The notes under the pieces were generated by a model. The model made no database searches. It saw nothing but the letters and a program-made list of their open reading frames with translations, and was not told the origin of the DNA. From assembly GCA_016196625.1 (NCBI GenBank), contig JACPXH010000007.1, positions 86,461 to 150,460 on the forward strand: 64,000 bases of DNA. Reading direction: 5' to 3'. Position numbers and translations under genes: made by a program. Of the stretch, positions 30,743 through 48,532 are shown in pieces (the stretch's first letter is position 1; each line of letters opens with the position of its first letter). The stretch is from Candidatus Parcubacteria bacterium. Its GTDB lineage: Bacteria > Patescibacteriota > Minisyncoccia > JACPXH01.

Positions 30743-31748
30743 AGAGCGTGGAGATCGCCTATGTAGATTATCTCGGACAACCTTGGCCTCAGAGCGTATC
30801 GACGTTCGGGCACCGTACGACCGCGAAGGCGTCTAGCCGAGATCCACAAGTAAATAGTTCGGTGAATCTCGAAGATGGACTTCTTCGCGGTTGTATTTTC
30901 CGAGACGCTGACTGACGCGGACAATTGAGATTGCTTCGCTGTGCTCGCAATGACGAATGCAGCCGGTGTCCCTTGAAAATTGAATAGGTAAGGTAAGTAA
31001 AAATCCAGTTATTCCTTGTTGTCCCGATCTATGGGTGTTCGGCAGCGCGCTTGGCGCGATGGCCGGACATCTTTTGAGAGTTTGATCCTAGCTCAGGATG
31101 AACGCTGGCGGCGTGGATAAGCAATGCAAGTCGTGCGAGGCCTTTTCTGAAGGAGTTGCGATTACATCAAGACGACAGATGAAATGGTCGAGCGGCGAAC
31201 GGCTTAGTAACACGTAGGAATCTGCCCCGGAGTCGGGCATAACTCGTCGAAAGGCGGGCTAATACCCGATGGTATCAGCATTGCAATTTTGATCTTTAGA
31301 ACCTTCTAGTGTCGACAAGCGCCTAGATGCTGGAAGTTGCGGCGAAGGGAAGGGAGCGCAGACTCCCTTGGTGGCGCGCACAAGTACCCCTTGACCGGTT
31401 AACCCGGGGGCCCTTCGCCTACTAATTTCTAGAGTTCAAAATTGCGATGCTGATTAAAGATGCAAATCACTCCGGGAGGAGCCTGCGGGCTATCAGCTTG
31501 TTGGCGGGGTAACGGCCCACCAAGGCTATGACGGCTAGGGGGTGTGAGAGCATGGCCCCCAAGATGGGTACTGAGACACGGACCTGACACCTACGGGTGG
31601 CTGCAGGCGAGAATATTCGGCAATGGGCGAAAGCCTGACCGAGCGACGCCGCGTGAAGGATGAAGCCCTGCGGGGTGTAAACTTCTTTTGACCGGGAGGA
31701 AGCCGCAAGGCTGACTGTACCGGTAGAATAAGGGGCTGCTAACCTCGT

Positions 31749-32101
31749 GCCAGCCCCGCACCAAACATTTGGTGGCGGGGCGACCAATGTTAGCAATACA
31801 AAACGAATCTGGTATTACCGAAAGCGCGACCTGGAGTCGCAAGGCTCCTTGAATAACTCGGCTCATATGCTGGGAACTCTGTGAGTGGCTGCAATCGTTC
31901 AACGATGCTCCAGAGCAATCAGCAGGGAAGTCGCCCCGCCCTTGGCGAGGTTGACCCCTCAGAGACTGATCCCTATCGGCGAAGTGCCGAGACGGGTGAG
32001 AACGGATGCGTGTGTATCTGTTCAGACGCCGAGCTCCGCCAATTGGCGGATGGTGGGATAGTCCATGTTCCGAAGCCAAATCCAAATGTTTTGGTAACGG
32101 G
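31749..32101 (+). mobile_element. 16S group I intron 1 (353 nt, ORF-less) near E. coli position ~516
   Basis: splits gtgccagcagc(a)gcggtaatac; contains ggctcatatgctggg and tcagagactgatc (R-like) blocks; ends with G. Confidence 0.65.
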
Positions 32102-32373
32102 GCCAGCAGCAGCGGTAATACGAGGGCCCCGAGCGTTATCCGGAATCACTGGGCGTAAAGAGTCTGTAGGGGGTCTGGTTAGTCGGGTGTGAAATTTCCG
32201 CGCTCAACGCGGAGCCCGCATCCGAAACGGCCAGACTCGAGGACGTGAGAGGCGAGTGGAATGCACGGTGTAGGGGTGAAATCCGTTGATATCGTGCAGA
32301 ACACCGAAGGCGAAGGCAGCTCGCTGGCGCGTTCCTGACCCTGAGAGACGAAAGCGTGGGGAGTGAATGGGAT

Positions 32374-33349
32374 CGGATTTGGTCCCCTCGTGCGGCGACG
32401 CACGAGCGCAAATCTGGCTATATGCTGGAACATCCGAGTATCTCACCGTACTGCGTTCAGGGCAGTAACAATCTGTGAGTGCGGATTATCAGCAGGAAAC
32501 CGTGGTAAAATGATACTATGGGATCCTCAGAGACTATACGCCGGATACCTCAAATGAATAAGGAACTCGCCATTCTGTTAGGACTTCTCTACACAGATGG
32601 TTGTGTTTCCCCAAAAGGACAAAGTTGGAGAATTTATTTCGCCGTAAAATCGCAAGTGTTAGTCAACCTTTTTCGGGATTGCATGGTAGATGTTTTCGCC
32701 CTCGAGTCTAATCGAGTGCGGATTGGCGTTACGCAAGATGGTTTAACGAGAGCCATCGTGAACTCGAAAGAGGTGGGCAACTGGTTGGTAGGCAGGTTTG
32801 GCACATTCCGAACGTTAAAGTTCGCGAATGGCCGATTGCCTCCAGCAAGACTGCCGGTGTCGCTGTTGAAAAGCACGCGACATGTAGCAGATTTCTTGCG
32901 AATTGCGTTTAGCTGTGATGGAGGCGTGAGTTTCTATTCTGCAAAACGCGACGGCAGAAATGGCGGCACCCGATGGTTAATTCGAACAGTCTTTCTCGCT
33001 TGCACACATCCGCAGTTGCGGAGAGATTATCTGAAGTTACTTTCTCAACTTGGCATCCGAGTACGAGAAGTCGCCAAAGATGGCAAGCTGAAGATGGAAA
33101 CAGAACGAGATATTCGTCTGTTTCAAGAGCGGATCGGTTTTACCGCCGGTGTTCGAGTAACGGGCAATTCCAAATTCTGGAATGGCTACGAAAAAAATGA
33201 AGTCTTGCGACTTCTGATCGCGTCGTATGGCCGGCCATCAAAGATCTACCAACTGCCTAAATTTAATGAGGTAATGATATAGTCCGAACTTCATGGCGAC
33301 ATGAAGAGACAAGTAAGACTGGGTAAATCTTGTCCGTTGTAACAACAAG
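32374..33349 (+). mobile_element. 16S group I intron 2 (976 nt) encoding LAGLIDADG endonuclease, at ~E. coli 788/789
   Basis: exon1 ends ...gggaU; exon2 tagatacccc; ggctatatgctggaacatccg, tcagagactatacgcc (R element); terminal G. Confidence 0.7.
32518..33282 (+). CDS. LAGLIDADG homing endonuclease (double-motif) inside 16S intron 2
   Basis: LAILLGLLYTDGCVS and FLRIAFSCDGGVS. Confidence 0.8.
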   Translation: MGSSETIRRIPQMNKELAILLGLLYTDGCVSPKGQSWRIYFAVKSQVLVNLFRDCMVDVFALESNRVRIGVTQDGLTRAIVNSKEVGNWLVGRFGTFRTLKFANGRLPPARLPVSLLKSTRHVADFLRIAFSCDGGVSFYSAKRDGRNGGTRWLIRTVFLACTHPQLRRDYLKLLSQLGIRVREVAKDGKLKMETERDIRLFQERIGFTAGVRVTGNSKFWNGYEKNEVLRLLIASYGRPSKIYQLPKFNEVMI

Positions 33350-33450
33350 TAGATACCCCAGTAATCCACGCCCTAAACGATGAGGACTTGTTGTGTAGAG
33401 TATCGACCCTCTACGTGGCGAAGCTAACGCGTTAAGTCCTCCGCCTGGGA

Positions 33451-33482
<32 letters not shown>

Positions 33483-33493
33483 AGACGGGAGTT

Positions 33494-33528
<35 letters not shown>

Positions 33529-33624
33529 GTAAGCGAGGAACCTTACCAGGGCTTGACATGTTCGAGTAAGGCCGCCGAAAGGTGGTCCCTCCCACAAGGA
33601 CCCGAACACAGGTGCTGCATGGCT

Positions 33625-34429
33625 ACATCCGGATACGGATGGATGGCCGGTCCGGTGGCAACATCGGATAACAATAACCAGCCCAAAACGGTGGAGCCCT
33701 CCTGGTTTTCGGAGTAAAATGGAAGCCAGTGGGTAATACCGTGGGAAGCAAGTTTATATTCAAGACAGCCGAAGACTACTACGCACTGGGTCTTTGGCTG
33801 GCGGATGGGTACTGGCGTTCAAGCTCAGTCGGCTTAACTTCGGTTGACTCTCGATTGATAGAGCGGTTTGTTCGGTTTTTACGGCGGGCGGCTCCGAGCC
33901 ATCCGCTGAAGTACCGAACGTATCACCCACTCGATGGTCGAGGGAAACGTAGACGTGTGGCGACACAAGTGTACGTAAACAGTCGGGCGTTGACCCGAAT
34001 GTTCACTGCCACGAAAACCGGAGTATTGTTCGTCCCATCGCGAAACGTTCCTGCGTATTTGGCAGGGCGGATAGATGGTGATGGGCACGTAGACGCCAAA
34101 CATCGATCGGGCATTCGGATCGCGTATGGGAACGCGTTCGATGCTCGGAGGGATCGTCGGTTGTTCGGCGCAGCCAATGTGAGCTTGTACCGGTATTCAG
34201 CTGCGAGGACGATGGTCCTTTACTTGAGGAAGCATTATCGAGAGCGCATCGAACCCGCGGTTCGAAAATTCTCGATGAAACTTGCCCCGTAGAGACTGAA
34301 TTCCGAATCAAAGCGGAATGAGAATTGTCGATCTTCGACGATTCAGACGGTTGGCATCCAGCCCCAGTTTTTCAAACTGGAGCTGGATGAAGGTATAGTC
34401 CATGCTCGTGGAAACACGGGAATATCATG
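33625..34429 (+). mobile_element. 16S group I intron 3 (805 nt) encoding LAGLIDADG endonuclease, after GCATGGCU (~E. coli 1057)
   Basis: exon junction gcatggct|gtcgtcagc; gaaggtatagtccatgc (S element); ORF begins inside conserved ataccgtgggaag block. Confidence 0.7.
33729..34292 (+). CDS. LAGLIDADG homing endonuclease inside 16S intron 3
   Basis: YALGLWLADGYW and YLAGRIDGDGHVD. Confidence 0.8.
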   Translation: MGNTVGSKFIFKTAEDYYALGLWLADGYWRSSSVGLTSVDSRLIERFVRFLRRAAPSHPLKYRTYHPLDGRGKRRRVATQVYVNSRALTRMFTATKTGVLFVPSRNVPAYLAGRIDGDGHVDAKHRSGIRIAYGNAFDARRDRRLFGAANVSLYRYSAARTMVLYLRKHYRERIEPAVRKFSMKLAP

Positions 34430-34528
34430 GTCGTCAGCTTGTGGCGTGAGTTGCTCCGTTCAGTCGGGTAACAAGCGCAACCCCTATGTGCTGTTACAGG
34501 TGTCAGCGCAAACTGCCTGCTTCAAGCA

Positions 34529-34564
<36 letters not shown>

Positions 34565-35144
34565 CTTTGATGCCCTGGGCGACACACGTGCTACAATGGC
34601 CGGTACAATGGGACGCCAACCCGTAAGGGGGAGCAAATCCCACCAAAACCGGTCTCAGTCCGGATTGAGGTCTGCAACCCGACCTCATGAAGCTGGAATC
34701 GCTAGTAATCGCGGATCAGCCACGCCGCGGTGAATACGTTCCCGAACTTTGTACTCACCGCCCGTCAGGCCAGTGAAGGCGGTAATGCCGGAAATCTGGG
34801 TTTGTCCCGGATGAAGGCAGGATCGCTGACAAGGGCTAAGTCGTAACAAGGCATCGGTAGCGGAAGCTGTCGATGGATCATCTCCTTTCTAGGGAGTTCT
34901 TACCTTCTACGGTTAAGAACCGCTAGTAAGGTCAAGTGGTCGGTGCTGCGTTTGCTGCCACAAGCACGAATGCGGCGGGAGTTGGCCGATGTCCTCAACC
35001 ATCGGCTGCTCGGCCCCGAAGCGTCATTCGGGCGGTCGGGACAACGAGGAAAAACTGGAATAGCAAACCGCGCGCCCTCTTGAGGGGGCGCGCGGTTGTG
35101 TTTTATGATGCGAGGGCGCTTGGATTGCGGCGTGCAGCTAAAGC

Positions 35145-35216
35145 GGGCGCGTAGTTCATTGGTAGAACGCCTTTCTGATAAAAAGGAGGTAGTAGGTTCG
35201 ATTCCTACCGCGCCCA
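35145..35216 (+). tRNA. tRNA-Ile (anticodon GAT), no encoded CCA
   Basis: gggcgcg acceptor / cgcgccc; anticodon loop ctGATaa; T-loop gtagg-ttcgatt-cctac. Confidence 0.9.
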
Positions 35217-35257
35217 CAGCAGATCTATTGCTGCATATTCGGACAGGAAAGTCGCTT

Positions 35258-36226
35258 ATGATAAAAGAGAAGATTAATAAGCCCAACATCCGAGATACTA
35301 AGCCGGGATACTCGGAGGGATATTATGATATTTTTGAACATTTGGAGGATTATGCTGCTAAGATTTTTGCCGCTGCAGACATTCATCCGCAAGAGACGAA
35401 AGTAATGGAGGGTGAAACTGGAGTTATCCTTAACGTATTTGATGGGCAACAGCGAGCCATCGTCAAGATTAATCCTTTCCATGGCGATCTCCTGACCAGC
35501 GACTACTTTTATAACAAGCTCGAGGGGTCTGGTGTCCCAGTTCCAAGCGTCTTATTTTTTGACGATTCAAGGCAAGTGATACCCTACGACTTCCAAGTTT
35601 TAGAGTATTTAGAGGGTGTAGATATACGGAGCATTCCGGCAAAACTTCACAGACAGGCGGGCACGCTCGTTGGCGAAGCGCTGCAGAAAATTCATAGCAT
35701 CAACGTTGAAGGATTCGGCTGGCCTTTATCAGGAGGCGGATGGGGCGCCACATCATGGCTGGATGCATTGCGAAAGAATTACTTTGATAGTTCTTTGGCA
35801 AAGAAACACGAAGTTTTTTCTACTGAAGAGATACGGCAGATAGAACGGATCACCTTCTTTAATGAAAAGCTCAATAGTATTGCACCTCATTTAATACATT
35901 CTGACGTAGGTCATGGGAATAGCTTATACAGGCTTGAAGACAATCAGTTGTTCCTCGTAGGATTCATAGATCCAGGCGGCATTATTGGGGGCGATCCGAT
36001 GTTTGATGTGCCGCTGAGCGTTGACGCTGAAGATGATTTTGAGAAAGGGATAGGGGAGGTATACACAGGGCGGAGATCTCTTTCTCCGGAAGAAGAGTAT
36101 CGTCTCAACCACCTCAACTTAGCCAGACGCTTTTGGTCAACATGCTGGCATTATGCGACCGGGAGAGACCATAAGCCGGTCAAAGACAAAACCGTTGTAC
36201 TACTCAAGAATCTGACCACGAGGTAG
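35258..36226 (+). CDS. aminoglycoside/choline-kinase-like phosphotransferase (APH family), low-GC gene directly 3' of tRNA-Ile
   Basis: Brenner motif LIHSDVGHGN, FIDPGG...GDPMFD; ORF-track N-terminal extension overlaps the tRNA and is rejected. Confidence 0.7.
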   Translation: MIKEKINKPNIRDTKPGYSEGYYDIFEHLEDYAAKIFAAADIHPQETKVMEGETGVILNVFDGQQRAIVKINPFHGDLLTSDYFYNKLEGSGVPVPSVLFFDDSRQVIPYDFQVLEYLEGVDIRSIPAKLHRQAGTLVGEALQKIHSINVEGFGWPLSGGGWGATSWLDALRKNYFDSSLAKKHEVFSTEEIRQIERITFFNEKLNSIAPHLIHSDVGHGNSLYRLEDNQLFLVGFIDPGGIIGGDPMFDVPLSVDAEDDFEKGIGEVYTGRRSLSPEEEYRLNHLNLARRFWSTCWHYATGRDHKPVKDKTVVLLKNLTTR

Positions 36227-36927
36227 TGGGTTTGATTCATATCGTGTCCACACCCATGAATAAATCCTGGCTCATTGCAATCGGAATCGTCGCGGCAATC
36301 GGCGTTGCTGTTTTCTTCGTCTCGATGCGGCGCGCGCCAGAACCGCCGGCGCCACCGTCGGGGCAACCGACGAATTCGCAGCCGTCTAACCAAACTCCCG
36401 CACCCGTGGACGCCGAAAGCGAAAAACCGCCGCGCGCATTCCCCGGCGTTCTTCCCGCCGAAGAAGTAGAAAACAAAATCGCGGTCATCAAAACGCCCAA
36501 GGGCGAAATTCGTTTTGAGCTTCTCGCTGCAGAGGCGCCTAAGACGACAAGCAACTTTGTGTATCTTGCAAAACAGGGCTACTTCAACGGCCTGAATTTC
36601 CATCGCGTGGAGTCGTGGGTGATTCAAGGCGGGGATCCGAACTGTGGTTCGACAGGCTCACCACCTTCGGCAGCTGGGCCGTGCGGCACCGGTGGGCCGG
36701 GTTATCGGTTTGAAGATGAGCCGGTGCGCTTGGAATACAAAACCGGCATCGTCGCCATGGCCAACGCCGGGTCCAACACTAACGGCTCGCAGTTTTTCAT
36801 CTTGAAACAGGACACGTCGCTCCCGCCCAACTACACTATTTTTGGGCGTGTGACGGCCGGGCAAGACGTAGTGGTAAAGATCGCTGCGGGAGACACGATG
36901 GAGAAAGTCGAGATTCTGTCGAAGTAA
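36226..36927 (+). CDS. membrane-anchored cyclophilin-type peptidyl-prolyl isomerase (start may be 36256)
   Basis: TM + Pro-rich linker, then FHRVESWVIQGGDP...IVAMANAGSNTNGSQFFI. Confidence 0.8.
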   Translation: MGLIHIVSTPMNKSWLIAIGIVAAIGVAVFFVSMRRAPEPPAPPSGQPTNSQPSNQTPAPVDAESEKPPRAFPGVLPAEEVENKIAVIKTPKGEIRFELLAAEAPKTTSNFVYLAKQGYFNGLNFHRVESWVIQGGDPNCGSTGSPPSAAGPCGTGGPGYRFEDEPVRLEYKTGIVAMANAGSNTNGSQFFILKQDTSLPPNYTIFGRVTAGQDVVVKIAAGDTMEKVEILSK

Positions 36928-36943
36928 TCCTGTATCATCAGGT

Positions 36944-37495
36944 ATGCGCCGACCCACGAAAATTCTGCTGACAACCCAGATGATCGCGGTGGGTGCCGCG
37001 GGGATGCTAGTGCCGATTTATGCGATCTACGTGGAAAAGATTGGCGGAGACATTCTCGCTGCGGCAGGCGCGTGGACGGTGTTTTCAATCGTGAGTGGGG
37101 CGCTCATGATGTTATTCGGTCGGCTCACCGATCGGGTGCGGGAACCAGAGTATTTCATCGTTGCCGGGTTCTTTGCGGCCGCGGTTGGTTACGTGGGGTA
37201 TCTCTTCGTGCAGAGCCCCACGCATCTGTTCATCGTGCAGATGGTGCTTGGCGTGTCGGTCGCGCTTATGACGCCCGCGCATGACGCGCTCTACACCGAG
37301 CACCTCGACGGCGGGCGGTTTGCGTCGGAGTGGGGGTTTTGGGAAGGCATGTGGAACATTACCGAGGCTGCGGCCGCGTTGGCTGGTGGGCTTGTGGTCG
37401 TATGGTTTGGGTTCAAAGCGCTGTTTATGATTATGGCGCTCTTGGCGTTTTCGACTGGTGTCTACGTGTGTGTCTTGCCGCGCCGGGTGCTGTGA
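36944..37495 (+). CDS. MFS-transporter C-terminal-half-like membrane protein (possible gene fragment)
   Basis: 6 predicted TM segments; only 183 aa. Confidence 0.45.
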   Translation: MRRPTKILLTTQMIAVGAAGMLVPIYAIYVEKIGGDILAAAGAWTVFSIVSGALMMLFGRLTDRVREPEYFIVAGFFAAAVGYVGYLFVQSPTHLFIVQMVLGVSVALMTPAHDALYTEHLDGGRFASEWGFWEGMWNITEAAAALAGGLVVVWFGFKALFMIMALLAFSTGVYVCVLPRRVL

Positions 37496-37585
37496 CCGAT
37501 TTGGCGCGTCAAGAAAAGAGAACGCCCGTCCCTCGATACACTAGGGACGGGCGTTGAATCTTGCGGAAGAAGGAACAGCGGGCGG

Positions 37586-38182
37586 CTAGACAGCGGCGAG
37601 AGATAGCGCCTTGAGCGCCGTTGGGACGATGATCCGGTGGCTCGGCACCAGATCATCCGGCAGGAGATCGGCCGGGTAAAAGGCACCGTTGGCCGGCGTG
37701 CCCTCGATGCGCGCAAGGTGAATGAGACAGCAGAACACTCCGCGCGTCGGTTCGGGGATGAGGCGGACGTCCACGAGCTGCGGCCAGCCGATGAATTTGG
37801 CCGGTGCAAGCTCCTTCGTCTCGAGCCGCCTGAACGCGGCCTCGAGATCCTCGCGCGCGATCCGCGCCTGAATGTCGTCGCCCAGTGGGATAGCGTCGGG
37901 CGCCTGGATGACGGTCCCGGGCGAGTGCAGCAATCCCGGAAATGCTTCGCTCGGCTCTTCCTCCTTCGTGGGCCGGCGCATGAGCAGCACTTGCAGGTCG
38001 CCGTGCGCCGGGCCGAAGCGATAGATCACAGTCTCGACCGCCGCTTTCGGCAGGAGCAGCGAGAGCGCCTCGAAGGCGTCCGGCTGCCACGGTTGGGTTA
38101 CGCCTAACCGCTTGAGCCAGTGCGTGCAGGTATCCCAGTCATCCTTGGTCGCGAGCGGCAGAACCCGTACCTGTTCGGTCAT
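37586..38182 (-). CDS. hypothetical protein, paralog A
   Basis: shares TQPW..FEAL...RRxT....HSPGT(V/I) pattern with adjacent ORF. Confidence 0.5.
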   Translation of the reverse strand: MTEQVRVLPLATKDDWDTCTHWLKRLGVTQPWQPDAFEALSLLLPKAAVETVIYRFGPAHGDLQVLLMRRPTKEEEPSEAFPGLLHSPGTVIQAPDAIPLGDDIQARIAREDLEAAFRRLETKELAPAKFIGWPQLVDVRLIPEPTRGVFCCLIHLARIEGTPANGAFYPADLLPDDLVPSHRIIVPTALKALSLAAV

Positions 38183-38212
38183 CCCATCCCCCCTTGCGTG
38201 GGCGTTGCTTGC

Positions 38213-38770
38213 TTACCGGCCAGCGAATCGATTCAGGCGGGGTAGTCCCGTGAGCGCGATTTCAATCAGCGAACGGTGGTGATCCATGAGTGGTTCTGGC
38301 AACGGTTTGTCGACCGGAAAAAATTGTCCGTGGTTCGGCATACCGATAACGTAGGCTATGTGGATCAGGCGTAGCTCGGTGCCGCGTCGGATCCGGTTCA
38401 GCTCAAGTTGTGTAAAGATCGGTTTGCTGATAGTGGCTGGCGCGAGTTCACGTTCCATCAACCGTTTTAGCGCATCGGTGAGCGTCTTGTCGGTGGCCCG
38501 CAATATTGTGCCGGGTGAGTGCCACTCGTTGGGCCAGTAGATGTCATTCGTCGCTCGGCGGGCCAAGAATACGCACCAGCCCTCGGGACGGTACTGGAAG
38601 CACACCACTTCGTAGGCCGCGCATACTACGCACCGTGCCAGAGCCTCGAACAGCTCGAGCGTCCAAGGCTGGGTGTGCTCCAATTTGCCGCACAGGCGAA
38701 TAAAGGTTCCGACTTCACGACGGGTCAGTTGGCCTTCTCGTAATAGCTGCGTCCCCATTGCCCTTGCCAT
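38213..38770 (-). CDS. hypothetical protein, paralog B
   Basis: tandem paralog of 37586-38182. Confidence 0.5.
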   Translation of the reverse strand: MARAMGTQLLREGQLTRREVGTFIRLCGKLEHTQPWTLELFEALARCVVCAAYEVVCFQYRPEGWCVFLARRATNDIYWPNEWHSPGTILRATDKTLTDALKRLMERELAPATISKPIFTQLELNRIRRGTELRLIHIAYVIGMPNHGQFFPVDKPLPEPLMDHHRSLIEIALTGLPRLNRFAGR

Positions 38771-38963
38771 CCGTTCCCTCCCTCCGTATGGGTGGCTGTT
38801 TGTCGCGCTGCCAACGCTGGTCTATTTTATATACCGGATCTATTGGATGAAGTCAACTGGTTGGTGTTATGTCGTCGGCGGCTCCGCCCGGGCCGCTGAT
38901 TCCTTTTTGTGCTTGGTGGATGTTCTTTTCAATCCGTACGCGCTGTGGTATACATAAAGCGGC

Positions 38964-39878
38964 ATGAAGTATCTCATCACCGGCGGCCCGAGGGGTTGGA
39001 TTGCCCAAAAGTTCGCGGCGTTTTTGAGTTCGCCGGGCGGCGAAGCCGAGCTGTCGGCCGTTAACATTGCGGACGCGACGGCAATCGAGGCCGAGCTCGA
39101 CCGGGCGAAGCCAGAGGTCCTCATCAATACTGCCGGCAAAACCGGCGGACCAACTGTGAGTCCCTCGGGCCAACCCGGGCGCAACATTGATTGGTGCGAA
39201 GACCACAAAGTTGAGACGCTCACCTCGAACGTGGTTGGGCCGGTGGAACTCGTGAAAGCCTGCAAGGCACGGAACATCAAGCTCGTGCACCTTTCAAGCG
39301 GCTGCATCTTTCAGGGTCGGGGGCACCTCGCGAGTGGTTTCCGTGAGGACGACGCGGTCGCCCCGCCGAGTTTTTACTCATGGACCAAATACTGGGCCGA
39401 TCAGTATTTGATGCAAGCCTGGCCAGAAGGCACGCTCATTTTGCGGCTGCGCATGCCCACGGACGCCGAACCCGGGCCGCGCAACCTCATCACCAAGCTT
39501 GCGGGTTATCCCAAGATCATTGACGTGGAGAATTCACTCACCGTGATCCCCGATCTTTTGGCGGCAACGAAGCAGCTGATTGCGCAGGGTGCGGTGGGGA
39601 TTTACCACGTGACCAATCCGGGGTCGGTCACGCATCGCGAGATTATGGGGCTCTATCAGAAGTTGGTTGATCCCGGGCACACCTTCGAGTTCATTTCAGA
39701 GGCAGAGCTCTACAGCCTTGGGCTTGCGAGTACCGGCAGATCCAACTGCATTTTAAACGTGGACAAACTTTTACGCGCGGGCGTGCAGATGCCGCCCATC
39801 AAGGAACGGATCCGTGAAGTAATGGCCGAGTATGCGGCGAATCTCAAACGCAGTCAGAGCGTTCCGGCTCAAGCGTAG
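38964..39878 (+). CDS. NAD(P)-dependent epimerase/reductase of extended SDR family (dTDP-4-dehydrorhamnose reductase-like)
   Basis: MKYLITGGPRGWIAQ Rossmann start; SSGCIF...YSWTKYWAD catalytic Y..K. Confidence 0.75.
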   Translation: MKYLITGGPRGWIAQKFAAFLSSPGGEAELSAVNIADATAIEAELDRAKPEVLINTAGKTGGPTVSPSGQPGRNIDWCEDHKVETLTSNVVGPVELVKACKARNIKLVHLSSGCIFQGRGHLASGFREDDAVAPPSFYSWTKYWADQYLMQAWPEGTLILRLRMPTDAEPGPRNLITKLAGYPKIIDVENSLTVIPDLLAATKQLIAQGAVGIYHVTNPGSVTHREIMGLYQKLVDPGHTFEFISEAELYSLGLASTGRSNCILNVDKLLRAGVQMPPIKERIREVMAEYAANLKRSQSVPAQA

Positions 39879-39971
39879 CCACGGTTCTGTGGTTTTGTGC
39901 ACGAAAGCGCCACCTTGCTCAAGGTGGTACTTCTGTTTTTGGCGTGAGCGTGGTATAACCTTGATTTAAGG

Positions 39972-40018
39972 GCTATAGCTTAGTGGCAGAGCACCCGCTT
40001 TGTTCACCCCGTACCAAA
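39972..40018 (+). pseudogene. truncated tRNA-Ala-like 5' half
   Basis: gggctatagcttagtggcagagcacccgctttg resembles first 33 nt of downstream tRNA-Ala; no T-arm/acceptor 3' strand. Confidence 0.45.
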
Positions 40019-40022
40019 ACTT

Positions 40023-40094
40023 GGGCCAGTAGTTTAGTGGTAGAACACCGCTTTTGCACAGCGGAGATCGCGGGTTCGATTCCCGCCTGGTCCA
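40023..40094 (+). tRNA. tRNA-Ala (anticodon TGC)
   Basis: gggccag/ctggtcc acceptor, anticodon loop ttTGCac, T-loop gcggg-ttcgatt-cccgc. Confidence 0.9.
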
Positions 40095-40137
40095 CAATTC
40101 AAAAAAGCATCACAGATATCCCTAATCTTATATATTC

Positions 40138-40914
40138 ATGGACACTCTCGATGACAAAGTAAATAAATCCGCGCTTGAAGCCCAAGTGAAAGATATGTAC
40201 CGGCAAGTGGCCCAGAATCCAAGGGGTGAGTACCATTTTGAAATGGGGCGAGATTTGGCCGAGAAGCTCGGCTATCCATCCGCAGACCTCGATGCCATCC
40301 CCGCAGAGGCGGTCGAATCATTTGCCGGTGTGGGCTACCACTTCGATCTGGCGGCGCTCAAGCCGGGCGAGCACGCGCTGGACGTAGGCAGCGGTTCAGG
40401 CACCGATGTCTTCTTTGCCGCACGCAAGGTTGGGCCAGCGGGGCACGTGGTGGGAGTGGACATGACGGACGAGCAGCTCGCAAAAGCCGAAGGGTTGCGT
40501 CAGCGTTATGGGTTTGAAAACGTATCGTTCGTGAAGGGCTATATTGAGCAGATTCCGGTGCCGGACGGCGGGTTTGACGTGGCTGTTTCCAATGGCGTCA
40601 TTAATCTTTCGGCCGAAAAGGTAAGGGTTGTGCAGGAGGTGAGTCGGGCGCTGAAAGTCGGCGGACGGCTGGCCATCTCTGACATTATGGCCTCGCACAA
40701 CTTGAGCGAGCGAATCAAGGCGAACGCGGAGCTGTGGGCGGCGTGCATTGGGGGCGCGGTTACTGAGCAAGAGCTCCGCCAATACCTTGAGCATGCTCAC
40801 TTGCAGTTGGTGGAGTTTCGCGAGAACCCGCAGTATAAGTTTTTGACTCATCCCGATGTCATGGAGAAATACGGCATCAAGAGCGTCTCGCTCTTGGCGA
40901 TCAAGACGGCATGA
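40138..40914 (+). CDS. class I SAM-dependent methyltransferase (ArsM/UbiE-like)
   Basis: LDVGSGSGTDV motif I, VSNGVINL. Confidence 0.75.
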   Translation: MDTLDDKVNKSALEAQVKDMYRQVAQNPRGEYHFEMGRDLAEKLGYPSADLDAIPAEAVESFAGVGYHFDLAALKPGEHALDVGSGSGTDVFFAARKVGPAGHVVGVDMTDEQLAKAEGLRQRYGFENVSFVKGYIEQIPVPDGGFDVAVSNGVINLSAEKVRVVQEVSRALKVGGRLAISDIMASHNLSERIKANAELWAACIGGAVTEQELRQYLEHAHLQLVEFRENPQYKFLTHPDVMEKYGIKSVSLLAIKTA

Positions 40915-41441
40915 TCAAAACGCCGTATGATCGAGTGATTGAGAAGTTCCTTGATCGCGAGGTTCAACCGGCGAGCCGTATCATTGACGTGGGATGCGGT
41001 ACTGGCTGGACGGCGCTCTTCTTGGCGCGCCGAAAGCCGGGTTCCCAAATCGTGGGCATTGATATTGACACGCTTACCGTCCACCGAGCGAATGCGCTAT
41101 TCCGTCGGGCGAGGCGCGAGAAGTTGGTGCAGTGCCATCGTTGCGGCGTTGAGCAGCTTCGCGTACGCTTCGGCACGCAGATGTTTGACTGCGCCATCAC
41201 GAGCCATACGCTGCACCATTTCGAGCGACCCGCAGCCGCTCTGCGGCAGATTCGGGCCGTGCTCAAGCGCGGGGGTCGTTTGCTGCTGGTCGAACTTTCG
41301 CCCCGCTACGGTGAAGCGCTCGACGATTGCCCCCGCTACTCGCTTGTCAAAATCAAGGAGTTCGTGCGGCGGGCTGGTTTTCGACGGGTAGGCGGAGCGG
41401 AGCGCGCGCCGGGTGTTGTGTTGGTTCGGGCGAGCCGATAG
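40911..41441 (+). CDS. class I SAM-dependent methyltransferase
   Basis: IIDVGCGTGWTA, GGRLLLVEL; 4-bp overlap with upstream MTase. Confidence 0.7.
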   Translation: MIKTPYDRVIEKFLDREVQPASRIIDVGCGTGWTALFLARRKPGSQIVGIDIDTLTVHRANALFRRARREKLVQCHRCGVEQLRVRFGTQMFDCAITSHTLHHFERPAAALRQIRAVLKRGGRLLLVELSPRYGEALDDCPRYSLVKIKEFVRRAGFRRVGGAERAPGVVLVRASR

Positions 41442-41704
41442 CCCAAGCTGTGGATAACGTTCGCGCAGCAAGCGATTGAGTGTGATAGAATTTGACTAGC
41501 CAGACTTTTCAATGGTTGATGGCCCGGCGCGGTTTTCTGCTCCAACGCATGCGGCAGCGCCGGAGAGCTACCCACCATTTAACAACTTAACCGTGATTGT
41601 CTTTCCTGCGCTGACTGGTCGATGTCAGCGTGTACGCATGGCTCCGCCATGCGGCAGGGGGAAGCAGAAGGCGGGGCTTTCCGCCCCGCTAAAAGGAATT
41701 TCCT

Positions 41705-42403
41705 ATGTATTCAGACATTGTTACGCTGCCCAATTGGGCCACCACCGTTGTTGATTCGCTCACGAGCCTATGGGCGCAGTTCATCGGTTTTCTGCCGGTG
41801 TTCTTGTCGGCTGTAATCGTATTCCTCATCGGTTGGCTTGTGGCAGCGGTTTTGGGCAAAGTTGTGCATCAGGTGGTCAAGGGTTTGCGCATTGACCAGT
41901 TGTTCGAGCAGATGGGCTTGGATAAGGCGCTCGCGCGAGGAGGGCTCAACTTGGATACGGGCCGGTTTGTGGGCGAGGTGGTGAAGTGGTTTGTCGTCGT
42001 GGCGTTCCTGCTGGCGGCCTCTGACATCCTTCAGCTGCGCGATTTCAACGACTTCTTGAAGAGCGTGTTGGGGTACATTCCGAACATCGTAGTGGCAGTG
42101 CTCATCCTGTTGGCCGGAGCATTGCTGGCCAACTTTCTTGAGCGCACGGTGGAAGCGAGCGTGGCGGCAGCCGAGCTCAAAAGCGGCAAGTTTCTTGGTG
42201 TGGTTACGCGCTGGTCGGTATGGATTTTTGCGATCTTAGCAGCCCTCGTGCAGCTCAACGTCGCGCGCCAATTGCTCACGACACTGTTTACCGGCGTCAT
42301 CGGGGCCCTCGCACTGGCCGCGGGCTTGGCCTTTGGTTTGGGCGGCAAGGATTTCGCCTCTGATTGGCTTGAGAAAATAAAGAAAGATGTAACAGAGCGG
42401 TAG
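41705..42403 (+). CDS. membrane protein with duplicated conserved-TM-helix repeat (mechanosensitive-channel-like)
   Basis: two internal repeats each TM + VVKxxxVVAFLLAA / LAALVQLNVA. Confidence 0.6.
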   Translation: MYSDIVTLPNWATTVVDSLTSLWAQFIGFLPVFLSAVIVFLIGWLVAAVLGKVVHQVVKGLRIDQLFEQMGLDKALARGGLNLDTGRFVGEVVKWFVVVAFLLAASDILQLRDFNDFLKSVLGYIPNIVVAVLILLAGALLANFLERTVEASVAAAELKSGKFLGVVTRWSVWIFAILAALVQLNVARQLLTTLFTGVIGALALAAGLAFGLGGKDFASDWLEKIKKDVTER

Positions 42404-42485
42404 CAGTCGGCAAGGGATATCGGGTTGTCGGCCGGCGGGGCGAGCGCCTCGCCGGCTTTGCTTTTTTCATGTGCAAAACAGGGTA

Positions 42486-42513
42486 TTGACACGTATTTTT
42501 TGAAGCTTATAAT
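42486..42513 (+). promoter_or_regulatory. consensus sigma70 promoter TTGACA-16-TATAAT, ~410 nt upstream of 23S
   Basis: exact -35 and -10 hexamers; preceded by terminator hairpin + T-tract of upstream gene. Confidence 0.5.
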
Positions 42514-42812
42514 GGGAACTGCCTTATGGCACGAACCCAAACCATACTCGATACCAGAAGCGGATAGACCTCGCGCGATTTATGATGTGTGCGCGAAGCC
42601 GCTTCTCCAGAGCGGTTTTCGTTTTCTTTATAGAGCGGGTGAGGAGTTTGGGGCGGAGCGCTCAGGGTTTTATTCCGAGCGCTGCGCTCCGGACTCAAGG
42701 GTTCGGGAGACCTTTGACAACCGAATACAGGCAGACAACATTGCAAAAAGACCCGCTTATCTGTTTTAGCGAAACAGAGGCGGGCATAAACAAAATACCT
42801 CTTATACGCTTC

Positions 42813-42914
42813 TCGATGCTTCGCATCGGGAATGTCTAATGACTAATGCCGAATGTCGAATTCGTTTTCGTCATTCGTCATTCGAAATTCGGCATTTCCG
42901 CTGCGGAGCAGCGG
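42813..42914. repeat. palindromic repeat family A (gtctaatg subfamily) abutting 23S 5' end
   Basis: cgatgcttcgcatcgg-gaatgtctaatgactaatgccgaatgtcgaattcg...cgaaattcggcatttcc-gctgcggagcagcgg. Confidence 0.65.
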
Positions 42915-43186
42915 GTGTGCGTTGCGAGGTAAACGGGATCGTAAAATAAAGCGTATGGTGGATGCCTTGACACCAAACGGCGATGAAGGACGTGGCGTGG
43001 CTGCGATAAGCTGCGGGGAGCTGCCGAGCAAGCTTTGATCCGCAGATGTCCGAATGGGGAAACCCAGCATGGCAAACCCATGTTACCCGCCTAAGTTTTT
43101 GGGCCTATTGAGAAGGGTCTAAAAACTTAGGCGGGAGCGCACCCGGGGAAGTGAAACATCTCAGTACCCGGAGGAACAGAAAACAA

Positions 43187-43285
43187 TGCTAGCTTTCTAG
43201 CTTTTAGCTTCCTAGCTTTTTAGGCGCGAGTGAACTGTCGTTCGTTCCTAGGAAGCTAAGAAGCTAATCAGCTAAGAAGCTAGCC
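43187..43285. repeat. agct-rich palindromic expansion inside 23S (family B)
   Basis: tgctagctttctagcttttagcttcctagc...gctaagaagctaatcagctaagaagctagc; related copy at 52316-52385. Confidence 0.6.
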
Positions 43286-43330
43286 CATTCCCTTAGTAGC
43301 GGCGAGCGAACCGGGAAAAGCCCAAACCAG

Positions 43331-43420
43331 CCCGAAGCTTCGCTTCGGGAATGTCTAATGTCGAATCCGTTTCGTCATTCGTTAATTAGGAATTAGTCAT
43401 TTCCGCAGCGGAGCTGCGGG
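43331..43420. repeat. family A palindromic insertion in 23S
   Basis: gaagcttcgcttcgggaatgtctaatgtcgaatccgtttcgtcattcg...tcatttccgcagcggagctgcgg. Confidence 0.65.
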
Positions 43421-43694
43421 TTGGGGTTGTAAGAGTATATCGCTTCTTTTCTTTCATCGTATCCCCCGCCTCCATTCGGATGGCGGATTAGGGGTACGGA
43501 GAAAGTTGAGAAAAGAAGAACACCTTGGAGCCGCGTTAGCCGAACACCCCTGGAACGGGTGGCCAGAGAGCATAATAGCTGCGTAGGCGAAAACGTTGGC
43601 TCGCTTCTCGATATAAATCTTGAGTACTGCCCCGCCCGGCTGCGGGGTAGGAAGCAGGGGCGACTACGCCCCAAGGCTAAATACGTTTGGTGAT

Positions 43695-43731
<37 letters not shown>

Positions 43732-43789
43732 CAGCCCGGTGAGGGCGGTGAAATAGTACCTGAAACCATACGCTGACAAGGAGTCAACG

Positions 43790-43889
43790 CCGGTGCTTCG
43801 CACCGGGAATGTCAAATGTCAAAGCTCAAATGTCAAAAGCGATTTGGCATTTGGATTTAGTCATTTGGATTTCCGATGCGGAGCATCGG
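43790..43889. repeat. family A palindromic insertion in 23S
   Basis: ccggtgcttcgcaccgggaatgtcaaatgtcaaagctcaaatgtcaaa...catttggatttccgatgcggagcatcgg. Confidence 0.7.
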
Positions 43890-44450
43890 TTATGGCGTGC
43901 CTATTGAAGAATGAGCCAACGACTTTATCTCGTCCGCAAGTTTAACCCCGTTAACGGGGGGAGGCACAGGGAAACCGAGTCCGAATAGGGCGTGGCGATC
44001 CTTTCGTACTATGCTCATCTTTCGATGAGCAGGGTGCGAATTGATCGCTAGCGGGCGGGTTAAGACCCGAAGCCAGGCGAGCTACCCATGGCCAGGGTGA
44101 ACTTCGGTGATAAACCGGAGGGAGGCCCGAACCCATTGGCCGTGCAATACCATGGGATGAGCTGTGGGTAGAAGTGAAAAGCTAATCGAGCCTGGGAATA
44201 GCTGGTTTTCTCCGAAATAGTTTTAGGACTAGCCTCGAGCGTTCACGATCGGAGGTAGAGCACTGGATGGATACGGCTGCCGATGAGGTACTGCATCCAA
44301 TCAAACTCCGAATGCCGATCGTTCAAGAGCTCGGGAGTCAGACGATGGGGGCGAAGCTCCGTCGTCGAGAGGGAAACAGCCCGTGATCGTCACGTAAGGT
44401 CCCTAAATCTCCACTCAGTGCAAGTAAGGAAGTGTCCCGCCTTAGACAGA

Positions 44451-44494
<44 letters not shown>

Positions 44495-44577
44495 CAGCTC
44501 ACTGTTCTATGGCAACTACGGCGGGGCGCGCCGAAAATGTATCGGGGCTTAAGTGGAGTACCGAACGTACGGATCAG

Positions 44578-44727
44578 CCGATGCTTCGCATCGGGAATGT
44601 CAAATGCCAAAGCTCAAATGTCAAGTCAAATCCAAAGTTCAAATGCCAAAGTCGTTTGGTTTTTGGATTTTGATCATTGATTTGTCATTTGGATTTTGAA
44701 ATTTGGATTTCCGGTGCGGAGCACCGG
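44578..44727. repeat. family A palindromic insertion in 23S (longest copy)
   Basis: ccgatgcttcgcatcgggaatgtcaaatgccaaagctcaaatgtcaagtcaaatccaaag...tttggatttccggtgcggagcaccgg. Confidence 0.7.
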
Positions 44728-45271
44728 TTGGTGGTAGGAGAACGTTCCCTGTGCAGTGAAGCCGCATCCGCGAGGAGCGGTGGAGCGCAGGGAAGTGCAA
44801 ATGTTGGCATGAGTAACCGCAAGTCCGGTGAGAGTCCGGACCACCGCAAGTCTAAGGTTTCCTTGGCAATGGCAATCATCCAAGGGTGAGGCGGGCCTAA
44901 GGCGATGGCGAAAGCCGGAGCTGATGGACAGCCGGTTAATATTCCGGCCCCGCCCGAACGACCAACGGGGCGACGGCGCAGCGTAGATCGAGCGTGTTAT
45001 TGGATTTGCGTCCCCGAGCCAGCGCGCCTTTCAGGCAAATCCGGAAGGCTGCCTTTGATGGCGAGCGCACGCACAGGGGTAAGGTTGACCGCAAGGTCGG
45101 CCAATTCGATCGAAACAGCGTCCCAGAAAACCCCCTAGGATTAATCGTTCGGGCGTCCGTACCGCAAAACCGACACAGGTAGACGAGGCGAGTAGCCTCA
45201 GGTGAACGGGTGAGTCCTCGTTAAGGAACTCGGCAAAACAGCGGTCGTAAGTTCGCGATAAGACCTCCCTG

Positions 45272-45359
45272 CCCGATGCTTCGCATCGGGAATGTCAAAT
45301 TTCAAAGCTCAAATGTCAAAAACGATTTGGCATTTGGATTTCCGCTGCGGAGCAGCGGG
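45272..45359. repeat. family A palindromic insertion in 23S
   Basis: cccgatgcttcgcatcgggaatgtcaaatttcaaagctcaaatgtcaaaaacgatttggcatttggatttccgctgcggagcagcgg. Confidence 0.7.
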
Positions 45360-45559
45360 CGGGGCGCAGCGAAAGACCCCTAGCGACTGTTTATCAAAAA
45401 CACAGGTTCCTGCTAACTCGTAAGAGGATGTATAGGAGCTGACGCCTGACCAGTGCTGGAACGTTAACGGTTGCGGTGCTTGTTGCTCTTAGGAGCAGTG
45501 AGTGCCAAGGCCCGAAGCGCCAGTGAACGTCCGCCCTAACTATAAGGGTGTTAAAGTAG

Positions 45560-45875
45560 TGGAATTTCACGTCGCGGTGCCGCAAGGCAACGTAGCGGCT
45601 TTGCTGCTTTAACTGAAAATCTGGCTATATGCGGGAAAGTCTTGAAAGCCGTGAGTGCGACACAGTAGTTCCTGTAGCCATCTGGTATGGAACAAACTGG
45701 GAGCAAAAATCTCACGGATGAGACAATCCGCAGGAAAGATCCGAAAGGAAATCCTCAGACACTAATACGCCAGACCGACCACATGAATTCTGATGTGGCT
45801 GGAAGATAGAGTGCGATCTTCATGGCGACATGAAGTTGCTATGCGGGTGATCGCATAGCGCATAACAGTCATAAG
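45560..45875 (+). mobile_element. 23S group I intron 1 (~316 nt, ORF-less) in GGUAG|CGAAAUUCC region (~E. coli 1910); boundaries +/- few nt
   Basis: exon resumes cgaaattccttggcaggtaag; ggctatatgcggg, tcagacactaatacgcc, ggaagatagagtgcg blocks. Confidence 0.55.
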
Positions 45876-45908
45876 CGAAATTCCTTGGCAGGTAAGAAAG
45901 ATGCCTGC

Positions 45909-46172
45909 TCCGGCGGAAACGTCGGAGAAAAACCCGGCTTATAACGGTGAAGCCCGACGCGGTTGCAGTTGACAAGAGACTGCGTGAACCGCGGGGTGAT
46001 ACCGTGGGAAGCCGCCCGCCGAAGTGCGGGTTGGCCCCGTAACGACTTGTTCCGAGAGGAACAGAGCCATCGCGAGATATGTGGATGGCTAACACGCCGG
46101 CCCCTCCTTCGGGAGGGTGAAGATATAGTCTATGCCACCAGGAATGGTGGGCCACATGAAGTTCTGTCCCGC
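45909..46172 (+). mobile_element. 23S group I intron 2 (~264 nt, ORF-less) splitting CCUGC|ACGAAUGGCGUAA; boundaries approximate
   Basis: shared blocks ggcttataacggtgaagc, ataccgtgggaag, ccccgtaacgact, gaagatatagtctatgcc. Confidence 0.5.
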
Positions 46173-46472
46173 ATGAAAGGCGTAACGACTGGGGGACTGT
46201 CTCAACGAGGAGCCCGGTGAAAATGCAATGCCGGTGAAGACGCCGGCTGCCTGCAACTAGACGAAAAGACCCCGGGAGCTTTACTATAGCTTGGCATTGG
46301 CCATGTGTTGGGCATGCGTAGCATAGATGGGAGGCGTTGAAGGCTGGATTTCGGTTCAGCTGGAGCCGACAGTGAAATACCATTCTTGTTCGATGCTTGG
46401 TCTAACCGGATCCGCAAAACGGATTTGGGACCGTGCCTGGTGGGTAGTTTGAGTGGGGCGCTCTCCTCAAAG

Positions 46473-47449
46473 CCGGTTGATCTCCTTCGGTCAATCGGCG
46501 GGGGACATCTCGAAACCCGAGATGAAACATTCGGCTATATGCTGGAACATCCGTGGTACTCGCGGGTAGTGAAATTTCACTGAAAATCTCGCGGGTGGCA
46601 CCCATAGGTCGGCGGACAACCAGCAGGCAACCCGCACTCGAAATATCGAGCGCGGGGAGTCCTCAACGACTATACGCCGAACCGAGCACGCATAAGTGCT
46701 CGGATGATATAGTCTGATCTTCTGGGCAACCAGAAGCATTGCTGCTCGCATCGTTCACGGTGCGGCAGCGAGACCCAAGATATGCATTCCAACAGGATTG
46801 AGAAGTACAAGCAGAAGCTGAAACTCACGAAACGCCAGAGGCAGATAGTGGTGGGAGCGGTTCTCGGCGACGGGCATCTGGAGACACAAGATGCCGGGAG
46901 AACCTATCGGCTGAAAATCGAACATTCTGTCGGACAGCGCGCTTATGTTGATTGGTTGTACGATCAGTTGAAACCGCTGGTAGGTACTTTACCCAAGGCG
47001 CGTGTCAGGACGAGAACGTTTCCCAGTGGATATGTTAGTACGGGAGTCAGTTACGGTTTTGCGACGTACTCCCTCGGAGCCCTGCGCTTCTATGCGCAGC
47101 AGTTCTATCGAGGGGGAGAGAAGATCGTTCCTCGATTGATCGGGAAATTGTTGACGCCGACATCCATTGCCATCTGGTACTTGGATGACGGCTCGGTCAA
47201 ATCGAATCGACACCGAACCTTCGTCATCCATACGTATGGATACGCACGGCGCGATCTGCAGCGTTTGCAAAGCGCGCTTGAGCAGTTCGGTATCAGGACC
47301 ACCTTACACACGCAAGTGCGGCTGTCCGGCCGATATCTGCGGTTGTATGTGGTGTCGGAATCGGCGGCGACATTCAGGGCGCTTGTCGAACCGATCATTA
47401 GAGCAATTCCGCAAATGCATTACAAGTTGGGGAACAAATTGCCTAAAAG
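46473..47449 (+). mobile_element. 23S group I intron 3 (~977 nt) with LAGLIDADG endonuclease, splitting CUCAAAG|GUAACGGAGGAGC
   Basis: cggctatatgctggaacatccg; ctcaacgactatacgcc; gatgatatagtctgatc; ORF stop codon overlaps exon 2 start. Confidence 0.6.
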
Positions 47450-47949: not shown

Positions 47950-48001
47950 AACAGGCTGGTAGTGCCCAAGAGCCCCTATCGACGGCACTGTTCGGCACCT
48001 T

Positions 48002-48500: not shown

Positions 48501-48532
<32 letters not shown>

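Follow-up and report, generated by a model that had tools for sequence, protein, structure and literature searches.

In Borrelia burgdorferi, the rRNA cluster consists of a 16S gene, a tRNA-Ala, a spacer of several kb that contains open reading frames (ORFs), a tRNA-Ile, and tandem 23S-5S genes. A locus of related design was found in a 64,000-nt stretch of DNA from Candidatus Parcubacteria bacterium (GCA_016196625.1, contig JACPXH010000007.1, positions 86,461-150,460 of the forward strand), which is referred to in its entirety as the window. As in B. burgdorferi, for which independent transcription has been reported, the spacer tRNAs are kept and coding DNA splits the 16S gene from the 23S-5S genes. 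B. burgdorferi differs in that it belongs to another phylum, its tRNA-Ile lies on the opposite strand, and its 23S-5S genes are duplicated; its cluster has no gene resembling the transmembrane (TM) part of MscS channels, such as occurs here, and no comparable stepwise series of relatives. In Thermus and Rickettsia, each rRNA unit has its own promoter and processing stem, as in the window; unlike in the window, the units lie far apart in the genome and spacer tRNAs are not kept between them. The same holds for Helicobacter pylori, whose rRNA maturation is the subject of PMC6582327.

Closer counterparts have been reported from the Candidate Phyla Radiation (CPR). According to the sections of Brewer et al. 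(10.1101/705046) drawn on here, rRNA genes are unlinked when more than 1,500 bp apart, a state common in clades including Patescibacteria. In the corresponding sections of Lui, Nielsen & Arkin (10.1101/2020.03.05.979740, PMC8172020), 27 of 34 circularised CPR genomes were unlinked, and the categories include spacers with tRNAs and protein genes as well as rRNA genes that share a strand, lie more than 2 kb apart, and are accompanied by opposite-strand genes; both papers cite B. burgdorferi as an unlinked case. Unlinked CPR rRNA genes with proteins in the spacer are therefore already published, and the phenomenon itself is known. Like those loci, the window's rRNA genes lie on one strand more than 2 kb apart, enclose tRNAs and protein genes including opposite-strand ones, and are rich in introns and homing endonucleases. 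The 16S-23S distance of 8,062 nt makes them unlinked in the sense of Brewer et al., and two minus-strand genes at 37586-38770 place them in the 'unlinked by distance' category of Lui et al. In the sections drawn on here, both studies classify by distance and strand, leave spacer proteins unnamed besides homing endonucleases, and report no conserved MscS-TM-like gene upstream of the 23S, conserved internal promoter, or tRNA-associated insertion scars.

We consider it likely that the rRNA genes of the locus are transcribed from one strand as two or more independent units, separated by a spacer that has grown stepwise. It would then offer a worked, sequence-level case of rRNA operon break-up, in which an old internal promoter with an embedded gene was followed by repeated small insertions beside the spacer tRNAs, accompanied by empty- and filled-site comparisons and by scars. 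In this CPR clade, a large 16S-23S distance does not imply a recent loss of co-regulation, as the 23S promoter was already present. The locus is also relevant to methods built on 16S-ITS-23S amplicons or on rRNA operon structure.

Two predicted transcription units

RNA genes were placed with Rfam and ARAGORN, and protein families were assigned with Pfam and NCBIfam. The canonical order 16S, tRNA-Ile, tRNA-Ala, 23S, 5S is retained on one strand (Table 1). Instead of the short, tRNA-only spacer of a canonical operon, the region between 16S and 23S holds the two tRNAs and nine protein genes, two of them antisense. An initial annotation of this DNA had placed ~7.7 kb of coding sequence between the two rRNA genes; the measured gap and its nine real genes bear this out, as do Pfam and NCBIfam for every spacer gene that it named.

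The annotation's textbook promoter ahead of the 23S was confirmed as a 12/12 match to the consensus. The pattern TTGACA-N16-TAYAAT occurs at just two sites in 64 kb (30715 and 42486), both on the plus strand, against 0.01 expected. The hexamers of the 23S promoter are invariant in three contigs from close relatives (L209, L210, and L215), and much of the 23S leader is highly conserved. Each rRNA leader also carries one copy of a 16-nt motif, which we take to resemble the boxA consensus, with none elsewhere in the window; this test is circular, the pattern having been built from the same two copies. Leader and trailer of each rRNA are predicted to form a processing stem, with a duplex energy of -82 kcal/mol for the 16S (shuffled, -59) and -70 kcal/mol for the 23S (shuffled, -33), while 16S/23S cross-pairings of the arms were no better than shuffles. 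A gene for RNase III lies upstream of the locus at 27591-28280.

Four hairpins may bear on transcript ends. That between the 16S 3' stem arm and tRNA-Ile is a candidate terminator or attenuator of the 16S unit; its structure, with a different sequence, is conserved in L210 and L215, and a promoter-like TTGAGG-18-TATGAT overlaps it. Since this conserved hairpin intervenes, co-transcription of 16S and tRNA-Ile is doubtful. The perfect hairpin behind the 5S is the likely end of the 23S-5S unit. The initial annotation had also placed terminator hairpins behind the interposed genes, and these were found after the gene for a short-chain dehydrogenase/reductase (SDR) and after the membrane-protein gene, but not after every gene.

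On this evidence, unit 1 would run from the promoter at 30715 through a boxA-like leader and the 16S, enclosed in its own RNase III-type stem, to a strong hairpin, and unit 2 from the promoter at 42486 through a boxA-like leader, the 23S in its own stem, and the 5S to a hairpin. The two spacer tRNAs and nine protein genes between the units would be expressed from their own or from read-through promoters. Separate units are the best reading because each rRNA has its own promoter, boxA-like motif and stem, and because two spacer genes are antisense. The functional split proposed in the initial annotation therefore stands in these respects, but its '16S-tRNA-Ile' unit is doubtful.

It is unlikely that the locus is still one operon in which the promoter at 42486 is a secondary internal one only. 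BoxA-like antitermination motifs could suppress the hairpin terminators, and yet polymerases reading through would collide with transcription of the antisense genes at 37586-38770. Some similar CPR loci are counted as operonic by Lui et al. in the sections consulted, and the 23S promoter of distant relatives stands right against the end of the membrane-protein gene, leaving no terminator in between; here, strong hairpins with U-tracts stand at 35066, 39909, and 42430, and a processing stem is local to each rRNA. The perfect consensus of the 23S promoter and its clade-wide conservation argue that it is the main driver. At the level of sequence, the conserved internal promoter, the hairpins, and the antisense genes argue against a single precursor transcript.

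Probable growth of the spacer between 16S and 23S

A compact state of the locus at the same chromosomal site appears to be preserved in two Portnoybacteria-type contigs (L217 and L218), whose membrane protein is 58% identical to that of the window. This orthologous locus has the same flanks: the genes for RNase III, S16, KhpA, and TrmD precede it, and those for a 270-aa protein and FtsW come after it. Their order is promoter, 16S, tRNA-Ile, hairpin, membrane-protein gene, a TTGACA-17-TATACT promoter, 23S, and 5S, with a 16S-23S spacer of 1,540 nt. When species-representative genomes were scanned for a tRNA-Ile pattern of the CPR type, at least 120 loci were returned; the window's genome and its close relatives were not among the matches listed. 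Most of these CPR loci had no nearby 16S or tRNA-Ala and are therefore plastic. The informative ones among those listed were L106, L107, and L124, in which a homologue of the membrane-protein gene directly follows an adjacent tRNA-Ile/tRNA-Ala pair; in L107 it is in turn followed by the 23S. At 22% identity, the methyltransferase in L107 is not orthologous to that of the window. Metagenomes scanned with a membrane-protein alignment gave 80 loci, 8 of which have the order tRNA-Ile, tRNA-Ala, membrane-protein gene, 23S. The 16S is upstream as well in seven of the eight (L148, L149, L152, L158, L175, L189, and L199), and L107 has the same full layout. The initial annotation had proposed looking for genomes in which tRNA-Ala directly follows tRNA-Ile; L107, L175, L148, L152, L199, and others are such cases.

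These distant relatives (16S identity to the window at most ~84%) also bear on the age of the 23S promoter. Where at least 1.5 kb of downstream sequence was available, a 23S lay within 1.5 kb of the membrane-protein gene on the same strand in 28 of 49 loci. An exact TTGACA-N16-18-TAnnnT was present in 27 of 37 distinct gaps between this gene and the 23S, against no case on the antisense strand and 0.43 on average in shuffles, and often started 5-50 nt past the stop codon. BoxA-like motifs occurred in 13 of the 37 leaders vs 1 on the antisense strand. No consistent promoter was found ahead of the tRNA clusters in the distant relatives scored (scores 7-9 of 12). Given these counts, the 23S promoter is not a product of the insertions. 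Both it and the membrane-protein gene appear to be old features of the clade, not created by insertions, and because both are already present in distant relatives, the functional split would predate the expansion of the spacer.

The expansion itself can be followed in four contigs from close relatives, whose membrane proteins are 94% (L216), 93% (L209), and 84-86% (L210 and L215) identical to that of the window. In L210 and L215, TrmD and the 16S are followed by a hairpin and tRNA-Ile; cyclophilin, a SET-domain gene, three genes on the minus strand, and the SDR then lead to tRNA-Ala, after which come a single methyltransferase, the membrane-protein gene, a perfect TTGACA-16-TATAAT, tRNA-Gly, and the 23S. 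L216 covers two minus-strand genes and the SDR, then a pseudo-tRNA-Ala and tRNA-Ala, and finally MT2 ahead of the membrane-protein gene. In L209 the membrane-protein gene is followed by 23S, 5S, FtsW, and RpoB. A multi-gene block that splits the two tRNAs thus appears common to the close relatives, its content still changing. The kinase of the window is absent at the site in L210 and L215, the relatives that cover it, and the ArsM-like methyltransferase is absent at the site in L216, L210, and L215, which cover that one; both of these lineage-specific genes lie directly 3' of a tRNA. Because most of the spacer content is common to L210, L215, and L216 in a piecemeal fashion, spacer growth appears stepwise rather than a single event. 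Spacer genes also turn over and decay, as the major facilitator superfamily (MFS) gene encodes only a half-transporter, and L210 keeps a 67-nt remnant of its 5' end (5430-5496) with a SET-domain gene in its stead.

Islands that target tRNA genes integrate at the tRNA 3' end, and the 3' segment of the tRNA then recurs as a direct repeat at the far end of the island. The kinase islet likewise begins immediately 3' of tRNA-Ile, which is intact, and at its right edge the terminal 32 nt of this tRNA are repeated with 26/32 matches. Its GC content is atypical, and it is matched by an empty site in L210 and L215, where the cyclophilin start stands directly after tRNA-Ile. No other stretch of the window matches the tRNA end as well as the repeat does; the next best reaches 20, and the shuffled maximum is 22. 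The kinase gene has 45.5% GC against a background of 56.5% and a third-codon-position GC z-score of -3.1. The islet differs from known islands in that it is 1 kb long with one cargo gene, the kinase being its sole ORF, that no integrase or recombinase is found in it, and that the repeat is degenerate. Its anatomy appears to be what remains when DNA inserts at the 3' end of a tRNA gene, with no integrase left. Kinase homologues in other organisms occur in unrelated contexts, which give no information on rRNA.

A second type of scar concerns the tRNAs themselves. A pseudo-tRNA-Ala, reported as 18 nt upstream of tRNA-Ala, recurs as a more decayed copy in L216. Between the window (35145-35217 and 40023-40095) and L210 (4629-4701 and 9227-9302), tRNA-Ile and tRNA-Ala are each ~79% identical, with paired stem changes, vs 91-99% for the 16S exons. 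A fragment resembling a tRNA 5' half was also observed just upstream of tRNA-Ile in L210 (~4575-4628) and L215 (~314-367). The motif TCACCCCGYA..AAAAYTT joins this fragment to tRNA-Ile and, in the window, joins pseudo-tRNA-Ala to tRNA-Ala (39970-40022). The same junction motif at both places suggests that the spacer tRNAs have been repeatedly overwritten. A more speculative reading, which we consider rather doubtful, is that incoming tRNA copies sharing this motif do so time and again; if true, it would point to a specific tRNA-replacing recombination process. As landmarks, the role given to them in the initial annotation, the tRNAs hold by position but appear to have been partly overwritten, in view of the pseudo-tRNA-Ala and the gap between tRNA and 16S identity.

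Taken as a whole, these comparisons are consistent with the following history. The clade ancestor would have had the order 16S, tRNA-Ile, (tRNA-Ala), MscS-TM-like gene, promoter, 23S, 5S, and therefore one protein gene and the internal 23S promoter already. In the common ancestor of the window and L210, L215, and L216, the block from cyclophilin to SDR would have entered between the tRNAs, and a methyltransferase after tRNA-Ala. Later, in the lineage of the window, the kinase would have entered 3' of tRNA-Ile and the ArsM-like methyltransferase 3' of tRNA-Ala, so that tRNA genes served as insertion points and were themselves partly overwritten. 'Pried apart by insertions', as the initial annotation put it, fits eight of the nine genes, the compact relatives, and the scars, but not the membrane-protein gene and the 23S promoter, which are older.

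Several points weigh against two units and stepwise growth. The promoters and terminators are all sequence predictions, made with a consensus in a group whose promoter specificity is uncharacterised. The hairpin ahead of tRNA-Ile is followed by just a short U-tract and may serve in processing instead of termination. Many distant relatives leave no room for a terminator before the 23S promoter, so read-through from upstream into the 23S is possible there and, to some extent, here. The insertion on the tRNA-Ala side lacks a 3' repeat: none derived from tRNA-Ala marks the ArsM-like gene in the window. Neither an integrase nor a transposase is found in the spacer, and the mechanism of insertion is read from the scars alone. 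Spacer genes of native composition may be intragenomic relocations instead of foreign DNA. Lastly, all relatives outside the 84-94% group are distant, which makes the polarity of some gains and losses uncertain.

We regard it as very unlikely that all 7.7 kb arrived recently as a single mobile element or genomic island within a canonical spacer. The tRNA genes flanking the blocks, the att-like repeat at 36220-36251, the pseudo-tRNA-Ala, and the GC content of the kinase are what such an island might leave; against this, seven of the nine genes are of native composition, the content is common piecemeal to L210, L215, and L216 with single-gene differences, the membrane-protein gene is ancient at its position, and the missing integrase or transposase tells against an island as well. 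The composition and GC-skew analysis proposed by the initial annotation for this region gave a boundary at the kinase and at one hypothetical gene, the two exceptions to native composition, but none elsewhere in the spacer. That the rRNA genes were never linked in this lineage, the two tRNAs being coincidental, is extremely improbable: such a history would agree with the many tRNA-Ile loci that lie apart from 16S and tRNA-Ala and with the unlinked state of most CPR genomes in the sections used of Lui et al., but not with the canonical order and strand of all five RNA genes, the compact L217 locus with identical flanks, or the many relatives in which tRNA-Ile and tRNA-Ala are adjacent between 16S and 23S. 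An assembly or binning artefact, i.e., a chimeric contig fused via rRNA repeats, can almost certainly be dismissed, for although rRNA regions are difficult in metagenome assembly and one assembly (GCA_016186535.1) holds two versions of the locus, the junctions SDR/tRNA-Ala/methyltransferase/membrane-protein gene/23S recur in L001 and L002 from different samples, membrane-protein gene/23S/5S/FtsW in L209, and TrmD/16S/tRNA-Ile/cyclophilin to 23S in L210 and L215. Junctions within the spacer and at the 23S end are thus reproduced in independent assemblies, namely Logan contigs of the same organism (L001 and L002) and NCBI contigs of relatives (L209, L210, L215, and L216); for the 16S/tRNA-Ile side, the sole independent support is the collinear contigs L210 and L215, both without the kinase. 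Sequencing runs SRR12113416, SRR12113417, and related ones contain the organism of the window. The metagenome-assembled genome GCA_016186535.1 is the source of both L209 (membrane protein 93% identical to that of the window) and L210 (84%); either its bin is mixed, or the genome carries two rRNA loci.

The membrane-protein gene upstream of the 23S

The gene ahead of the 23S promoter encodes a protein of 232 aa with more than 1,100 homologues, a family that one source names CmpX. It matches Pfam PF05552 in two stretches with 68.4 bits against a cut-off of 22. An AlphaFold2 model is all-helical (mean pLDDT 81). PDB profiles of MscS TM1-TM3 match residues 116-209 (E 3e-4 to 1e-2), and Foldseek aligned the model to MscS TM1-TM3 over ~90 residues with a probability of 0.97-1.0 and an rmsd of 2.2-3.6 A, at E-values of just 0.4-2. 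By profile and predicted fold, the C-terminal half can therefore be likened to TM1-TM3 of MscS channels; CmpX of Pseudomonas, of the PF05552 family, is the other close counterpart. Unlike MscS channels, the protein lacks the defining cytoplasmic MscS domain: PF00924 gave no match, and PF05552 was the only family found. Our literature search for mechanosensitive-type or PF05552 genes located within rRNA operons of CPR bacteria returned nothing relevant.

We flag the conserved pairing of this gene with the 23S. Across Parcubacteria that span a whole class, the gene has stayed directly ahead of a conserved 23S promoter, and the pairing persists even in loci from which 16S and tRNAs have moved away. 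For this reason its transcription or termination might be coupled to 23S-5S expression, making it other than a passive passenger, an idea that we put forward tentatively and consider rather doubtful. If true, coupling could act by read-through, promoter occlusion, or growth-rate-coupled expression of the membrane protein, and the PF05552 gene would belong to the rRNA locus as an integral, conserved protein-coding component.

Upstream of the gene, at 41484-41704, a conserved extended -10-like TGATAGAAT is followed by a structured leader of ~210 nt that is also conserved. Both occur in the window, L209, and L216; L210 has the -10 only. The region, which has no match in Rfam, may be the gene's own promoter and 5' untranslated region.

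Insertions in the rRNA genes and minor features

Compared with the uninterrupted L217 genes, the 16S has at least three insertions, among which are a group I intron and two LAGLIDADG ORFs; the 23S has at least nine. Several of these insertions carry repeated core motifs of group I introns. The best small-subunit Rfam model for the 16S is the archaeal one, probably owing to its insertions. Five related elements of ~90-150 nt, each one long, near-perfect hairpin (z-scores -6.8 to -10), occur beside the 23S processing stem and within the 23S, where the four copies interrupt different sites. They look like insertions of the intervening-sequence or miniature inverted-repeat transposable element type. 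Where the window has the leader copy, between 23S promoter and 23S, L210 (11059-11133) and L215 (6798-6872) have a tRNA-Gly(GCC).

Table 1. Features of the rRNA locus, in window coordinates. Promoters, terminators, and stems are predictions.
Feature	Position	Strand	Remarks
16S promoter, TTGACA-16-TACAAT (predicted)	30715-30742	+	333 nt before 16S; conserved in L210 at 593-620
boxA-like motif, 16S leader, CCTTGAAAATTGAATA	30971-30986	+	
16S processing stem, 5' arm	31004-31029	+	
16S rRNA gene	31075-34886	+	Rfam; 3.8 kb
LAGLIDADG ORFs, four	32518-33282, 33729-34292, 46782-47453, 49054-49533		
16S processing stem, 3' arm	35033-35059	+	
14-bp GC-rich hairpin, then GTGTTTTATG	35066-35097	+	Between 16S 3' stem arm and tRNA-Ile
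tRNA-Ile(GAT)	35145-35217	+	Rfam, ARAGORN
Kinase islet	35218-36219	+	Sole gene is the APH-family kinase; absent in L210/L215
APH-family kinase	35258-36226	+	Pfam/NCBIfam
Degenerate direct repeat of tRNA-Ile 3' part, att-like scar	36220-36251	+	26/32
Cyclophilin-type peptidyl-prolyl isomerase, N-terminal membrane anchor	36257-36927	+	ATG 36257 is the probable true start
MFS half-transporter, 183 aa	36944-37495	+	
Hypothetical protein, paralogue 1	37586-38182	-	
Hypothetical protein, paralogue 2	38213-38770	-	
RmlD-like SDR	38964-39878	+	Common to L210, L215, L216
Terminator-like hairpin after SDR	39909-39928	+	Hairpin at equivalent position in L216
Pseudo-tRNA-Ala, 5' half only, ends in anticodon loop	39970-40002	+	30/33 identity to L012 tRNA-Ala
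tRNA-Ala(TGC)	40023-40095	+	Rfam, ARAGORN
ArsM-like S-adenosylmethionine (SAM) methyltransferase	40138-40914	+	Directly 3' of tRNA-Ala; window-specific insertion
SAM methyltransferase MT2	40911-41441	+	Orthologues in L216, L210, L215
PF05552 MscS-TM-like ('CmpX'-type) membrane protein	41705-42403	+	Directly upstream of 23S unit
Terminator-like hairpin, 12-bp stem then TTGCTTTTTT, after membrane-protein gene	42430-42457	+	Equivalent in L209, L210, L215
23S promoter, TTGACA-16-TATAAT (predicted)	42486-42513	+	436 nt before 23S
boxA-like motif, 23S leader, CTTTGACAACCGAATA	42712-42727	+	
Long-hairpin repeat, leader copy	42813-42915	+	Beside 23S processing stem
23S processing stem, 5' arm	42916-42940	+	
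23S rRNA gene	42949-49888	+	Rfam; 6.9 kb
Long-hairpin repeat, four copies in 23S 5' half	43332-43420, 43790-43890, 44578-44728, 45273-45359		
23S processing stem, 3' arm	49890-49914	+	
5S rRNA	49954-50062	+	Rfam
Perfect 17-bp hairpin after 5S	50067-50104	+	

The two minus-strand hypothetical proteins are paralogues of each other (33% identity, E 2e-21). Exact-protein look-ups gave no match for the kinase or for the cyclophilin as read from a GTG start; an identical kinase protein is on record in NCBI under Candidatus Parcubacteria bacterium. A CPR source also agrees with the intron-rich rRNA genes and their LAGLIDADG ORFs. An Rfam scan of the spacer at E up to 5 returned no further structured RNA or tRNA fragments.

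The 3' end of the 16S (34866-34886) reads GGATCATCTCCTTTCT, and that of L210 (4330-4345) and L215 reads GGAATATCTCCTTTCT. The anti-Shine-Dalgarno core is UCUCC, not CCUCC, and a clear Shine-Dalgarno sequence is present at few genes of the window. In a regular-expression survey of 16S 3' ends, too few loci matched to be useful. Finally, an unusually tRNA-rich spacer was observed in another CPR contig (L042; JAUYOU010000002.1), in which seven tRNAs (Ile, Phe, Gly, Met, Asp, Lys, and Val) come after the 16S, then a tRNA-Met on the opposite strand and the start of the 23S, with 16S to 23S start within 2.7 kb.

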